Below are positions 4,868-11,057 of a DNA stretch of 29,139 nt, piece after piece. The notes below the pieces were generated by a model. The model ran no database searches, was not told where the DNA came from, and saw nothing but the letters and a program-made list of their open reading frames with translations. The position numbers were made by a program, and so were the translations under genes. Every line of letters begins with the position of its first letter. Positions within the stretch are counted from its first letter, which is position 1. Source of the DNA: Candidatus Coatesbacteria bacterium (lineage in GTDB: Bacteria; JAFGND01); assembly GCA_016927185.1 (NCBI GenBank), contig JAFGND010000065.1:1-29139 (forward strand). Reading direction: 5' to 3'.

Positions 4868-4901
4868 TTGACATATTCTCTTTTTATTTGCATTTTAAAT
4901 A
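4868..4901 (+). promoter_or_regulatory. Putative sigma70 promoter of the marR operon, with an overlapping imperfect palindrome (possible MarR operator)
   Basis: TTGACA (4868), 17 bp, then CATTTT preceded by TG. The inverted repeat TATTT-GCATTTT-AAATA (4885-4901) covers the -10. Confidence 0.5.
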
Positions 4902-4923
4902 CGACAAAGGATTTGGATTTATA

Positions 4924-5370
4924 ATGAGAGATGAGAATTATATCATTGCTGAGAGGATGCTGTTAATTATGCAGAAACTCAGCTTCTTATGCGAAAAGGA
5001 AGAATGCAGACTTATGGAAAAAAGAGGACTACATCTATCTGAAGGAAGACTCCTGTCAATACTTCTAAGCAGGGAATCTTTTTCAATGCAGCAGCTAGCT
5101 TCTATCCAAAAAGTGACTACTGGCAGGATGACAAAGATAATTGATGGTCTTGTGGAAAAAAAACTGGTAGAAAGGAAAGCATCTCATCTGGATAGAAGGT
5201 TTTTTTCGGTGAGTCTTACATTAAATGGAAAGTCAGTTGCCCAGAATCTTAAAAAATCTATTGTTGAAGACTATATAAAAATAATAAAAAGATTGAACTC
5301 AAAGACAAAAGATTCTATTCTTGAAGTTCTTGAAGAAATATTGACAAGTCTAGAAGAGCATATGACATGA
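4924..5370 (+). CDS. MarR-family transcriptional regulator
   Basis: GLHLSEGRLL, MTKIIDGLVEKKLVER, DRR..VSLTLNG winged helix. ATG 4924 is preferred to TTG 4888, which lies inside the promoter. Contains CEKEEC. Confidence 0.9.
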   Translation: MRDENYIIAERMLLIMQKLSFLCEKEECRLMEKRGLHLSEGRLLSILLSRESFSMQQLASIQKVTTGRMTKIIDGLVEKKLVERKASHLDRRFFSVSLTLNGKSVAQNLKKSIVEDYIKIIKRLNSKTKDSILEVLEEILTSLEEHMT

Positions 5371-5546
5371 AAATCTTGCCAAAATATGCATTGAGTGTTT
5401 CTGCTGGCGCTTTAGCAGGATTTGGTATAAGCCAGCTTTTTGCATGTACAGGAGGCGGCTGATCAATTTACAGTAATCCTTATCTTTCTTCACTATTAGG
5501 TGCTTTGATAGGAGGATTATTAGCTTCAGGTAGAAGCAATACTTAG
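5367..5546 (+). CDS. Small two-TM membrane protein (DUF6132-like) with an in-frame TGA; candidate selenoprotein (CxxxxU)
   Basis: ATG overlaps the marR stop (ATGA). Translation is MKILPKYALSVSAGALAGFGISQLFACTGGG[TGA 5460-5462]SIYSNPYLSSLLGALIGGLLASGRSNT-TAG. It matches the C-x-x-G-x-C-x-I-x-S-N-P...GAL.G pattern on both sides of the TGA and fills the gap up to the guaA stop. Confidence 0.8.
5472..5521 (+). other. Candidate SECIS-like stem-loop downstream of the in-frame TGA
   Basis: TAATCCT (5474-5480) pairs with AGGATTA (5513-5519), TATC with GATA, and an apical CACT/GGTG closes an ATTA loop. The core stem starts 11 nt after the TGA. The loop lacks the usual 5' G. Confidence 0.4.
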
Positions 5547-5547
5547 A

Positions 5548-7077
5548 CTATTCCCATTCTATTGTTGCAGGTGGCTTGCTGCTTAAATCATAGACAACCC
5601 TGTTTATTCCATGAATCTCATTTATAATCCTGTTGGCTACTTTGCCAAGAAACTCATTAGGCAATGGAGCCCAATCCGCAGTCATTCCATCTTCTGCCAT
5701 AACCGCTCTCAATGCAATTACCTGTTCATAAGTTCTGCTGTCTCCCATTACACCTACACTCCTAACTGGAAGAAGCACTGCAAATGCCTGCCATACATAA
5801 TCATATAAGTTATTGCTTTTAAGCTCGTCTATGAAAATAGCATCAGCTTTTCTTAGCAAATCAATATTTTCTTTATTTACGTCCCCAATTATTCTGACAG
5901 CTAATCCTGGTCCAGGGAAAGGATGCCTCCCAAGAATGTAATCTGGTATCTTCAATTCTTTTCCTAATGCTCTTACTTCATCCTTGAATAATTCCCTGAA
6001 TGGTTCAAGCAACTTGAATCTGAATTTTTCTGGTAAACCTCCAACATTATGATGACTTTTGATTACTGAAGCTGGTCCCTTTACTGAAGCACTTTCTACA
6101 ACATCAGGATACAAAGTGCCTTGTGCAAGATATTTAAAATTTGTATATTTTTTCTGAGCTCTCTCGAAAGTTCTTATAAATATCTTTCCAATAATTTTCC
6201 TCTTTTCTTCTGGATCAATTATTCCTTTAAGATTTTTAAGGAAGAATTTACGAGCATCAATTAGATTGACAGGTAATGATAATGATTTAACGTTTTTCAT
6301 CACTTCTTCTGCCTCATTAAGCCTTAGCAATCCATTATCAATAAAAAAACACTGCAGCCTTTTTCCAATTGCCTTGTGAAGAATAGCTGCTAAAACCGTG
6401 CTGTCAACTCCTCCTGACAATCCACATAAAACGTTTTCTTCCTTAACTTCTGATTTTACTGAATCTATTGTCTCTCTCAGGAAATTTGCTGGAAGCCAAT
6501 TGAAACTAAGATCAGAAGTCCTCAGGAAGTTCTTTATTATTTCAGTACCATGTTCTGTATGTACAACTTCAGGATGAAACTGCAATCCATAAATAGGAAG
6601 TTTGTTATGCTTGACGGCTGCATTTTTACAGGTTTTGGTTGAAGCTATTGATTCGAAATCCTCAGGAAGTTCTGTTACCTGATCATAGTGACTCATCCAG
6701 ACTGTAGAGTGATTTTTGATATTCAGCCAGAGGCGGTCTTTTTTTAAAGAAATGCTTGCTTGTCCATATTCTCTTTTATCTCCATGCTCTATTTTTCCCC
6801 CAAATTGCTTTGCAATTACCTGTAATCCATAGCAAATCCCAAGTATTGGTTTTCCTATTCTATAAATATCAGGATGAGGTTTAGGTGCTGTTTTGTCATT
6901 TACGAATGAAGGACCTCCGCTCAAAACTATAGCTTTTATCTCCCTTGCCTTCAATTTGCTTGCAGGGATATTGAATGGCACAAGTTCAGAATAAACACCA
7001 GAAGACCTGATACGCTTCAATATTAACATACTGAATTGGCTACCAAAATCAAGAACAAGAACTTTCTCTCTTTTCAT
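5548..7077 (-). CDS. guaA: GMP synthase (glutamine-hydrolysing)
   Basis: VLDFGSQ, GICYG, QFHPEV, SGGVDS, IKSHHNVGGLP, KPPATIEWE. Start reassigned to MKREKVLV (ATG 7077). Confidence 0.97.
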   Translation of the reverse strand: MKREKVLVLDFGSQFSMLILKRIRSSGVYSELVPFNIPASKLKAREIKAIVLSGGPSFVNDKTAPKPHPDIYRIGKPILGICYGLQVIAKQFGGKIEHGDKREYGQASISLKKDRLWLNIKNHSTVWMSHYDQVTELPEDFESIASTKTCKNAAVKHNKLPIYGLQFHPEVVHTEHGTEIIKNFLRTSDLSFNWLPANFLRETIDSVKSEVKEENVLCGLSGGVDSTVLAAILHKAIGKRLQCFFIDNGLLRLNEAEEVMKNVKSLSLPVNLIDARKFFLKNLKGIIDPEEKRKIIGKIFIRTFERAQKKYTNFKYLAQGTLYPDVVESASVKGPASVIKSHHNVGGLPEKFRFKLLEPFRELFKDEVRALGKELKIPDYILGRHPFPGPGLAVRIIGDVNKENIDLLRKADAIFIDELKSNNLYDYVWQAFAVLLPVRSVGVMGDSRTYEQVIALRAVMAEDGMTADWAPLPNEFLGKVANRIINEIHGINRVVYDLSSKPPATIEWE

Positions 7078-7236
7078 GATTGTTAAAGACAAGATAAATA
7101 GTTTTTGGTCAAGTACTAGTTTTTGAAAATGCATGGATGACATGAAAGCGATGTTTTTGACTTTAGTACCTTGACAGATTATTTAATCTGAGCAAAGATA
7201 GCCATTGGATAACATTGAACAGAAGAAAGGTTTATA

Positions 7237-8631
7237 ATGTCACTAAGGTTTTTTAATACTCTTGGAAGAAAGGTTGAGAAATTTGTACCTATTGAGATGC
7301 CAAAAGTTGGCTTATATACATGTGGACCAACAGTTTATAATTATGCTCATATAGGAAATTACAAATCCTATATTTTCGAGGATGTGCTTAGAAGAACTCT
7401 GGATTTCCTGGGATATCAAGTAAAGCATGTTATGAATATCACTGATGTTGGTCATCTTGTCAGTGATGAAGATGAGGGTGAAGATAAAATGGAAATAGGA
7501 GCAAGGAGAGAAAATAAAACTCCCTGGGAGATAGCAGAATTCTATGAGAAAGCTTTTTTCAACGATACAAATGAGCTTAATATCTTGCCTCCTCATATAA
7601 AATGCAAGGCAACAGATCATGTCCAGGATATGATTGCATTGATAGCAAGACTTGAATCAAGAGGATTGGCTTATACATCAGGTGGAAATGTCTACTTTGA
7701 TGTTGAAAAATTCAGAAATACCTATAATTACTCAAAACTAGATACTGCTTCATATGAGACCGGAAAAAGAATAGAAGAGGATCAGCAAAAGAAATCTCCT
7801 TGCGATTTTGTATTGTGGTTTACGAAGAGCAAATTTGAAGGACATCTTATGAATTGGGATTCTCCCTGGGGATATGGATATCCTGGCTGGCATATAGAAT
7901 GCTCAGCCATGAGTATGAAATATCTTGGAGAGCAATTTGATATACATTGTGGAGGAGTGGATCATATTCCCATCCATCATTCAAATGAGATAGCTCAGTC
8001 AGAAGGAGCTACTGGAAAAATACCATGGGTAAAGTATTGGTTACACAGTGAATTCCTTATAACTACTGCAGACAAAATGAGTAAATCATCTGGCGAATTC
8101 CTGACATTATCCAAACTCAAGGAAAATGGATTTAATCCTTTATCCTTCAGATATTTATGTCTTACAGCGCATTACAGATCTCAGCTTCAATACAATGATT
8201 CTGCGATAGAGAATGCAGAGCAGAGCTATAACAGACTACTCAATATTGCAATGAGTTTGAAGGAAGAATCAACCAACATCGGGAAAGCTGATGAAGAGTA
8301 TTTGTTTCAATTTAGGTCAGCACTGGAAGATGACCTTAACACTCCACAAGCATTAGCTATAGTCTGGGGAATGCTTAGGGATAAAGGTTTAACAAATGAA
8401 GTTAAATGGGCAGGTTTGATTGAGTTTGATAAAGTTCTGGGTTTTGGATTTGCAATAATGGAAAAAGATAAAGAATTATTGCCGCTAGAGATAGAAAATC
8501 TTATCAAGGAGAGAGAACTCTCCAGAAAGAATAAGGATTATTCTCGGGCAGATGAGATAAGAAACATATTGCTTGTAAAAGGTATTACTCTTCAAGATAC
8601 TCCTCAGGGAGTAAAATGGGAGAAACTTTAA
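7237..8631 (+). CDS. cysS: Cysteine--tRNA ligase
   Basis: YTCGPTVY, HIGN, PGWHIECSAM, HCGGVDH..HHSNE, KMSKS. Confidence 0.97.
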   Translation: MSLRFFNTLGRKVEKFVPIEMPKVGLYTCGPTVYNYAHIGNYKSYIFEDVLRRTLDFLGYQVKHVMNITDVGHLVSDEDEGEDKMEIGARRENKTPWEIAEFYEKAFFNDTNELNILPPHIKCKATDHVQDMIALIARLESRGLAYTSGGNVYFDVEKFRNTYNYSKLDTASYETGKRIEEDQQKKSPCDFVLWFTKSKFEGHLMNWDSPWGYGYPGWHIECSAMSMKYLGEQFDIHCGGVDHIPIHHSNEIAQSEGATGKIPWVKYWLHSEFLITTADKMSKSSGEFLTLSKLKENGFNPLSFRYLCLTAHYRSQLQYNDSAIENAEQSYNRLLNIAMSLKEESTNIGKADEEYLFQFRSALEDDLNTPQALAIVWGMLRDKGLTNEVKWAGLIEFDKVLGFGFAIMEKDKELLPLEIENLIKERELSRKNKDYSRADEIRNILLVKGITLQDTPQGVKWEKL

Positions 8632-8644
8632 CTAAGGAAAAAAC

Positions 8645-9079
8645 ATGAAAGAACTTCTGAAAAAAGGATACATTCCTATTCAATTGAAAAAAAACAGGTT
8701 AGGGCATTTCCTTATTCCAGTCAAAATAAAAAACAGAAGATTTGATTTTATTCTGGATACAGGTGCAACAGCTACTTGCCTGGATAGAGATCTGATATAT
8801 ATACTTGATTTCAAAAAGAGCTCTAAAAAGGATCCTCAAGCTCAGGGATTGGGAGGAAGCGTTGCAGCAGAGATTATCAATTTATCTTTAGTCAGTATAG
8901 GGGAAATAGATATCAGTTCAATAAATGTCGCTTTGATTGATTTGACTTCTGTTAAGCAAGCATGTGAACTAAAGAAGGCAAAAACCATTCAGGGGATTAT
9001 TGGAGTGGATTTGCTGGAGAGATGTAAAGCTGTGATAGATTGGGCTAACAAGACTATCTGGTTGAAGCAGACTACTTAA
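8645..9079 (+). CDS. Retropepsin-like (clan AA) aspartic protease
   Basis: GHFLIPVKI, FILDTGA catalytic motif, GLGG flap, GIIGVDLL. SD AAGGA. No signal peptide. Confidence 0.85.
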   Translation: MKELLKKGYIPIQLKKNRLGHFLIPVKIKNRRFDFILDTGATATCLDRDLIYILDFKKSSKKDPQAQGLGGSVAAEIINLSLVSIGEIDISSINVALIDLTSVKQACELKKAKTIQGIIGVDLLERCKAVIDWANKTIWLKQTT

Positions 9080-10673: not shown

Positions 10674-11057
10674 TTAGTCTTCATCTTCTTCGATTTTCGT
10701 ATCTTCAGAAGGAGTAGATGCAGAATTGAAACCTGGTAATTGGCTCATTACTGCTGGCACTAAATCTATGATTTTATTAAGCAGAGTACTTTTGTCTTCT
10801 GTACTCAGGATTTCAATTCTATCCTTTTGTTGAACTATAAATGCCATTGGTTGTACAACCAAACCTCCACCAGCTCCACTTCCTTCTCCCTCATCACCAC
10901 GATATCCTCCACCAGCTCCAAAACCTAAGATTATCTTGCTTATTGGAACAACTTTTGAATTTCCCAAATCAATTGCATCTCCAACGACAGTTTCTGTCTT
11001 CGCAATCTTGGAAATTTCTCCCAGCATGTCTTTAATTACTTCTTGAGTCGATGACAT
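10674..11057 (-). CDS. YtfJ/GerW-family protein
   Basis: KTETVVGDAI..VVPISKI..GFGAGGG..GAGGGLVVQPMAFIV. Strong SD AAGGAGG. Confidence 0.85.
   Translation of the reverse strand: MSSTQEVIKDMLGEISKIAKTETVVGDAIDLGNSKVVPISKIILGFGAGGGYRGDEGEGSGAGGGLVVQPMAFIVQQKDRIEILSTEDKSTLLNKIIDLVPAVMSQLPGFNSASTPSEDTKIEEDED

Follow-up and report, generated by a model that had tools for sequence, protein, structure and literature searches.

We analyzed a 29,139-nucleotide (nt) stretch of DNA from Candidatus Coatesbacteria bacterium (GenBank assembly GCA_016927185.1, contig JAFGND010000065.1, positions 1 to 29,139), referred to here as the window. Our focus was a small open reading frame (ORF) that lies between marR, encoding a MarR-family regulator, and guaA, the convergent gene for GMP synthase (Table 1). 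The initial annotation of this DNA had described a 59-codon frame interrupted once by TGA, at codon 32, and had proposed that it encodes a small membrane hairpin protein with selenocysteine (Sec) at the TGA, which gene callers would miss. The layout of the frame was as described. Its ATG (5367-5369) overlaps the marR stop TGA (5368-5370) as ATGA, a single base (5547) separates its stop from that of guaA, and the one in-frame TGA stands at codon 32 in the context FAC-TGGG-[TGA]-SIYSNPY. With translation table 11, only a 31-amino-acid (aa) ORF (5367..5462) is listed here.

AlphaFold2 modeled the read-through protein with modest confidence (mean predicted local distance difference test score, 65.4) as two helices, and the C-x4-U motif sits in the loop joining them. 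Both helices are moderately hydrophobic on the Kyte-Doolittle scale, in agreement with the Gly-rich hydrophobic helix that had been noted on either side of the TGA. Basic residues are found at both ends of the protein. Together with the hydrophobic helices, this is consistent with a membrane hairpin whose two termini are intracellular, a topology that we infer from the sequence.

Table 1. Features of the small ORF and its two neighboring genes (positions in the window).
Feature	Position	Strand	Details
Small ORF, DUF6132-type two-helix protein, predicted Sec at codon 32	5367..5546	+	59 sense codons + TAG
marR, MarR-family regulator	ORF 4888..5370	+	Pfam MarR 33.8 bits, MarR_2 32.6 bits; likely start ATG 4924
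guaA (GMP synthase), convergent with small ORF	5548..7143	-	Pfam GATase 154 bits, GMP_synt_C 148 bits
Codons 5-24, first Gly-rich hydrophobic helix	5379..5438	+	AlphaFold2; mean hydropathy 1.29
TGT = Cys27, first Cys of C-x4-U pair	5445..5447	+	Column at least 90% conserved in homologue alignment
In-frame TGA, read as Sec32 (predicted)	5460..5462	+	Aligned to nearly invariant second Cys; kept in contigs X2, X3, and X4
Codons 38-56, second Gly-rich hydrophobic helix, encoded 3' of the TGA	5478..5534	+	AlphaFold2; mean hydropathy 1.17
Candidate selenocysteine insertion sequence (SECIS) hairpin, 12 bp, bulged A 5492, loop GUGCU 5500-5504	5487..5516	+	-9.5 kcal/mol
TAG stop of small ORF	5544..5546	+	Translation

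By its sequence, the small protein belongs to the DUF6132 family. A phmmer search of 1.84 billion representatives with the read-through protein returned 42 matches at E <= 0.001, namely, 41 full-length proteins (55 to 97 aa) and an identical 31-aa truncation (P0002). P0002 is the sole record of the small-ORF product in the protein collection, and the 31-aa product is found on two Logan contigs. Thirty-eight of the 41 homologues match the Pfam model PF19628 (DUF6132) at E <= 0.001, and the closest Cys homologue (P0003) is in DUF6132 clusters of the ESM Atlas. The consensus of the 41 homologues, GCxxGxCPITSNPYxSTxYGAL, matches the DUF6132 motif that the initial annotation had given. When the homologues are aligned, at least 90% of rows have Cys at position 27 and likewise at position 32, the column into which the TGA falls; the small protein keeps Cys27, Gly30, Pro38, Gly45, and Gly49 of the family. 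A profile of the 41 Cys homologues, from which the small protein was excluded, matched it at 64.5 bits (E = 3.9e-16 at Z = 1e6). Residues 33-59 scored 31.0 bits and residues 1-31 scored 27.7 bits, part scores to be read with the caveat that the 41 homologues had been retrieved with the full read-through query. The TGA thus replaces the second conserved Cys, and similarity continues beyond it, as had been claimed.

The assignment to DUF6132 itself held indirectly. It stands through the homologues, whereas the Pfam score of the read-through protein is 14.6 bits (E = 0.027; residues 5-53 of 59 aligned to positions 6-54 of 60 in the model), under the 23.2-bit gathering cutoff of PF19628, and a PF19628 search of the whole genome found nothing at E <= 1. 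Both results count against the assignment. The cutoff is operational in that some TGA-form relatives pass it (L028, 36.5 bits; L026, 39.0 bits; L036, 40.4 bits; L089, 30.5 bits) and others fall under it (L049, L039, L043, and L087) or have no match (L029). The small protein has no other Pfam match. A search of NCBIfam, including the release 20 selenoprotein models, gave no match beyond noise to the small protein or 10 relatives, and a word-indexed protein search with the read-through protein gave no candidate. Compared to the Cys forms of DUF6132, the small protein has a similar length (about 50 to 80 aa), the two Gly-rich helices, and the loop motif GCxxGxCPITSNP[YW], and the gene neighbors of TGA and Cys forms show the same themes. 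It differs in that Sec (TGA) replaces the second Cys, Ala the Gly that precedes Cys27, and Ser the Pro that follows position 32.

The initial annotation had raised the concern that the TGA might be TGT or TGC in reads. Contigs of three runs from two other studies (X2, X3, and X4) all keep the TGA, and none differs at 5460-5462. The X2 contig covers all 1013 bases with 14 differences, the X3 contig covers 5179-5574, and the X4 contig covers 5234-5542. Among the three, the small ORF has a single change, 5408 C>A, which turns the GGC of an invariant Gly into the synonymous GGA. The strain is present in samples from sediment and biogas. X3 holds one loose end, a more divergent relative that ends in ...SGGSNT with a TAA at the same place (before 5547). 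A separate observation concerns record 14 of X3, a biogas-fermenter run. This 271-nt contig is about 85% identical to marR (window 5032-5290) and stops before the small ORF; its differences fall mostly at every third base, which marks a more distant relative.

The genome (2.99 Mb, 109 contigs, 35.9% G+C) decodes UGA as selenocysteine. It encodes all four components that the initial annotation had named, which are tRNA-Sec (68.3 bits; also called by ARAGORN, with anticodon TCA), selA (342 bits), selB (334.6 bits, aligned in full without internal stops), and selD (327 bits). Two known selenoprotein genes are present as well: selD has its own in-frame TGA (SCAG-U-ASK; G000:C1:9143), and fdhA (892 bits) has an in-frame TGA at HCARL-U-HSS (G000:C65:94379-96382). 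A search of the genome collection gave no kin nearer than the same domain, the best GuaA identity being 56%.

Relatives with a TGA at the second-Cys position were found in two ways. A pattern scan of one genome per species, covering 185,579 species, used TGY-N6-GGN-NNN-TGA plus six conserved downstream codon features and gave 39 matches. Twenty-nine of these are family members at E <= 1.5e-5 against a Cys-only profile, with alignments spanning the TGA; the remaining 10 are chance matches (2 at E >= 1 and 8 without a profile match). By record title, the 29 members come from 11 named phyla, including Thermodesulfobacteriota, Spirochaetota, Bacteroidota, Bacillota, Chloroflexota, and Planctomycetota. 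Two of the loci belong to one metagenome-assembled genome, and the only isolate is a Lachnospiraceae (locus L043). Since the pattern demanded a TGA, the family profile was also run, without that demand, on 400 genomes spread across the domain. The family was present in 37 of them, with a TGA at the second-Cys position in 12 and Cys forms in 25 (two atypical). All 12 TGA-form genomes have selA, as do 10 of the 25 with Cys forms (22 of the 37 searched); because related genomes are not independent, we give the exact p-value for this association no weight. The initial annotation had made its proposal depend on relatives with TGA at codon 32 and conservation downstream of it, and on a Sec machinery in the genome, and all of these are present. 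Metagenome contigs scanned with the single protein gave 597 pattern matches, none of which was confirmed. A second metagenome scan, with the pattern of the small protein's clade, returned two records only, with genes matching L056 and L044; one metagenome record, L098, contains the L056 gene exactly.

The part of the protein encoded after the TGA is under the same constraint as the part before it. From 40 rows, we took 12 disjoint pairs of TGA forms, chosen greedily by identity (0.6 to <1.0), and compared the ratio of nonsynonymous (pN) to synonymous (pS) differences on the two sides. pN/pS was 0.34 in the 24 codons after the TGA and 0.35 in the 24 before it; when the codons fixed by the search pattern were left out, the values were 0.40 and 0.38, respectively. 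This equality implies that the part after the TGA is maintained as protein. We also built a tree of 63 rows with the Sec/Cys column masked. In it, L081 and three Desulfobacteraceae genes, all of them TGA forms, cluster with the small protein, and the supported clade around them comprises 14 Sec and 2 Cys rows. A minimum of 10 Sec/Cys changes is required, compared to 19.7 in shuffles; the tree is drawn from few columns with many forks open, and its Sec:Cys ratio reflects sampling. Three TGA forms (L087 1498-1677, L090 575-754, and L092 1519-1749) have Tyr or Leu in place of the first Cys and a new Cys four residues after the Sec (U-x3-C-N/Q-P). The partner Cys has seemingly moved across the Sec in these genes, which fits a functional Sec-Cys pair. 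As a side observation, the Cys form L060 (1507-1701, minus strand, G319) carries the W-G-S residues that characterize one of the TGA-form clades. Its downstream region folds strongly (z = -3.44), genome G319 has selA, and the gene may record a recent change from Sec to Cys.

SECIS-like hairpins were scored with one criterion, a loop of 3 to 10 nt starting 16 to 37 nt after the UGA, with G as the first or second base of the loop and no fewer than 4 pairs in the stem. The counts exclude L093, L094, and L096, in which the motif was not found by rule, as well as L091, L092, and one identical duplicate. The median hairpin energy was -9.0 kcal/mol in 39 distinct TGA forms and -3.95 kcal/mol in 24 Cys forms (Mann-Whitney p = 4e-6), and against codon-order shuffles the TGA forms had a mean z of -1.35 and the Cys forms one of -0.31 (p = 0.0013); these p-values overstate the significance because the sequences are related. 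A hairpin at or below -7.5 kcal/mol occurs in 64% of TGA forms compared to 8% of Cys forms, and the rows beaten by at most 5% of codon-order shuffles number 15 of 39 and 2 of 24, respectively. Geometry differs by clade, with loops at 17 to 19, 25, or 29 to 37 nt after the UGA. In three clades examined by RNAalifold, the hairpins are conserved within clades with little covariation (terms of -0.36, -0.10, and +0.16), and 4, 1, and 1 pairs are changed on both sides. The hairpin of the small ORF itself is matched by only 1.2% of 2500 in-frame Cys codons in the genome's long ORFs and equaled by 0 of 100 codon-order shuffles.

Taken together, homology, Sec machinery, TGA-bearing relatives, selection, and hairpin enrichment support the proposed Sec-containing small membrane hairpin. 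At the level of the family, the selenoprotein reading is well supported. For the window, we believe, with good though not complete confidence, that 5367-5546 is a real gene whose TGA at codon 32 is decoded as selenocysteine. The 59-residue product would consist of two Gly-rich hydrophobic helices and a 13-residue loop, FAC-TGGG-U-SIYSNP. SelB and tRNA-Sec would read the UGA, probably by means of the hairpin formed by the second-helix codons, and a Cys27-x4-Sec32 pair would take the place of the C-x4-C of the family.

Several points weigh against this reading. All of the evidence for Sec32 in the protein is derived from sequence, and the other strains, at about 98.6% identity, are too close to be informative on selection at the locus. 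The hairpin criterion follows the bSECISearch description and was set once the folds had been seen, and 14 of the 39 TGA forms are without a hairpin at or below -7.5 kcal/mol. The main weakness is the loop of the small ORF's own hairpin, which lies 37 nt from the UGA, compared to 17 nt in selD (loop GUC) and 18 nt in fdhA (loop GGUCU) of the same genome. For bacterial SECIS elements, the range of this distance ends at 37 nt. Plain folding energy downstream of the TGA is unremarkable (z = -0.77 and -0.65). Family-wide, it does not separate TGA forms from Cys forms (mean z, -0.82 and -1.19), a likely reason being that Pro and Gly codons form pairs in either group. Finally, the SelA frame is intact, yet the protein has 383 aa and is without positions 1-54 of the TIGR00474 model (L011 1459-2610, G000:C83, minus strand). 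The N-terminal part of SelA binds tRNA-Sec in other bacteria. As an aside on SelA, a similarly short match, covering 45-455, was seen in another genome (G215).

These weaknesses bear on the explanation that the UGA mostly or always terminates translation here, so that the gene yields a one-helix peptide of 31 residues or is the decaying relic of an ancestral Sec form. The loop distance, the plain folding z of -0.77, and the shortened SelA all favor it, as does the lack of RNA among the listed public runs with the locus. We nevertheless consider termination quite unlikely. The frame stays open for 27 codons past the TGA, and this part scores more in the family profile than the part before it; such conservation, at 49% identity to the nearest relatives, is not expected of untranslated sequence. 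The three nearest Desulfobacteraceae relatives also have far loops in their DUF6132 genes (29 to 30 nt, compared to 18 nt in their fdhA genes) and are maintained downstream of the TGA, with a pN of 0.04 and a pS of 0.24. Far loops in maintained genes make the 37-nt distance less of a weakness. The selD and fdhA genes of the genome depend on working Sec insertion in any case. A single base change from TGT or TGC would be enough for an isolated nonsense mutation or for an error in sequencing or assembly, and most family members have Cys at this position. With the TGA present in four assemblies from three studies, in all four nearest relatives, in 14 of the 16 rows of the supported clade, and in 12 of the 37 genomes of the unbiased sample, we regard such an event as very improbable. 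Nothing beyond the open frame speaks for TGA being read throughout the genome as a standard amino acid, e.g., Trp or Gly. TGA ends marR and 378 of the 1446 open frames of at least 300 codons in the genome, guaA aligns over its full length without internal stops, as selB does, and tRNA-Sec and SelB are present. TGA has therefore not been generally reassigned, as the initial annotation had held, and we give this explanation next to no credence.

We looked for clues to function in the two nearest ORFs on each side of the family genes. Around 39 TGA-form genes (115 ORFs), the most frequent domains were Thioredoxin_2 (15) and Thioredoxin (14), followed by OsmC, MarR, and ArsR with 3 each, the MarR count including the marR of the small ORF. 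Around 24 Cys forms (71 ORFs), we counted Thioredoxin (9), Rhodanese (5), pyridine-nucleotide disulfide oxidoreductase (4), rubrerythrin (3), and AhpC/TSA (3). Of the 63 loci, 18 have thioredoxin genes within 1.5 kb, with 9 loci among the 39 Sec forms and 9 among the 24 Cys forms. All but one of these 26 thioredoxin genes are on the same strand as the small gene, often with a 13-nt overlap, and several encode signal peptides. In one TGA-form DUF6132 gene (L089 1177-1710, minus strand, G256), the reading frame continues into a C-terminal thioredoxin-fold domain (PF00085, 28.5 bits) that seemingly has no CxxC. In the Krumholzibacteria-type clade, a conserved 131- to 132-aa protein with CPHC...CP(x)C is encoded directly downstream at six of six loci (L024, L025, L039, L051, L057, and L058); the one member scanned (L039) had no Pfam match.

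At the small-ORF locus, marR is the only linked gene, the surroundings are otherwise housekeeping, and there is no thioredoxin neighbor. The nearest relatives sit among unrelated genes, e.g., those for SbcC, glycoside hydrolases, and fumarase. Both facts tell against the functional part of our reading, so we infer a redox partner at the level of the family. The redox or metal-binding role that had been suggested for the protein thus draws its support from neighborhoods in other genomes. The protein may lie in the membrane with both ends cytoplasmic, where its Cys-Sec pair could cycle between selenol/thiol and selenenylsulfide. Reducing equivalents might be exchanged with thioredoxin-family proteins in a thiol or peroxide stress response. 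The small protein would be co-translated with, and probably controlled by, the MarR-type regulator with which it shares the stop overlap. The MarR protein has a C-x4-C (Cys23 and Cys28, numbered from ATG 4924) in its N-terminal helix, a feature often carried there by thiol-sensing MarR proteins; in NCBIfam it gave weak HpaR-, FabT-, and OhrR-type matches, all far under the cutoffs.

Alternatively, the protein could be a selenoprotein that uses Cys and Sec to bind soft metals or metalloids (Hg, Cu, As, or Se) and not for redox cycling. ArsR-type regulators are found near six Sec-form loci and methyltransferases near six loci, and the membrane selenoproteins listed in the accessible part of a 2026 review of the prokaryotic selenoproteome (PMC13188914) are metal transporters. 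Against this, thioredoxins are the most frequent neighbors, followed by OsmC, peroxiredoxin, rubrerythrin, rhodanese, and thioredoxin-reductase-like genes, and no metal transporter or chaperone family is in the top 25 neighbor families. We consider metal binding possible but doubtful. A joint reading of the data is that DUF6132 proteins could be the smallest known selenoenzymes (about 55 to 60 residues). Each would be a membrane-embedded hairpin with a Cys-x4-Sec loop at the membrane surface that reduces lipid or organic hydroperoxides or shuttles between thioredoxins. It would be recycled by thioredoxins encoded upstream, some of them exported, and switched on here by a thiol-sensing MarR. 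As a whole, this picture is speculative and unlikely to hold in all of its parts.

A parallel to the redox reading is CcdA/DsbD (PF02683), a membrane protein whose two paired cysteines undergo exchange with thioredoxin-like proteins on both sides of the membrane. In many cases, the DUF6132 gene comes after genes for a cytoplasmic thioredoxin and for one with a signal peptide. Unlike the small protein, CcdA has six helices. The two have no sequence relation, and the small protein does not match DsbD_TM. We ruled out that DUF6132 replaces CcdA, as a CcdA/DsbD gene is present in five of five DUF6132-Sec genomes tested, including that of the window (a separate CcdA-type gene, G000:C69:8048-8671).

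With the selenoproteins FdhA and SelD, the Sec form of DUF6132 shares a UGA where homologues have Cys, a hairpin in the coding region, and occurrence only in selA genomes. It differs in that the small protein is far smaller and its hairpin geometry varies between clades. Eukaryotic SELENOK and SELENOS are very small membrane-anchored selenoproteins with a single helix, Sec near the C terminus, and the SECIS in the 3' untranslated region; to our knowledge, they have no homology to DUF6132. Among prokaryotes, the accessible part of the 2026 review lists the mercuric transport protein and the SO_0444 Cu/Zn efflux family as membrane selenoproteins (PMC13188914). These share with the small protein a Sec paired with Cys in an integral membrane protein, but they are unrelated, larger families with a transport role. 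In the same accessible text, the terms PF19628, 'DUF6', 'CxxxxU', 'transmembrane', and 'integral' do not occur. The accessible parts of the deep-Sep paper (PMC12013277) and of the Haft preprint, which describes eight selenoprotein families, contain nothing similar. A literature search found no paper on DUF6132, a family without known function. A Sec-containing DUF6132 is thus apparently undescribed, with the reservation that the 111 families of BSepDB (PMC13326102) are named only in its supplement.

Because gene calling ends at the TGA, databases contain the gene and its relatives as 30-residue fragments or omit them altogether. If our reading is correct, DUF6132 gains a chemical handle (the Cys-Sec pair), partners (thioredoxins), and a place among prokaryotic selenoprotein families. 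About one-third of the carriers in the broad genome sample would use selenium at this site, across at least 11 phyla of mostly anaerobic bacteria. The protein would be among very few bacterial membrane selenoproteins and by far the smallest of them, and annotation pipelines would gain a concrete new model.

The remaining observations concern the surroundings of the small ORF. A promoter scan at the locus gave 5 sites compared to 4.3 expected from shuffles, which is no excess, and no notable operator-like palindrome was found upstream of marR. The scan of the locus gave two terminator-like sites, one of them within the small ORF. On the far side of guaA, cysS (window 7237-8631) adjoins it and is followed by a gene (window 8645-9079) whose small product contains an aspartyl protease domain of the retroviral type (PF13650, 52 bits). 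Further along, window 10674-11057 encodes a Spore_YtfJ-domain protein, which may hint at a spore-former lineage.

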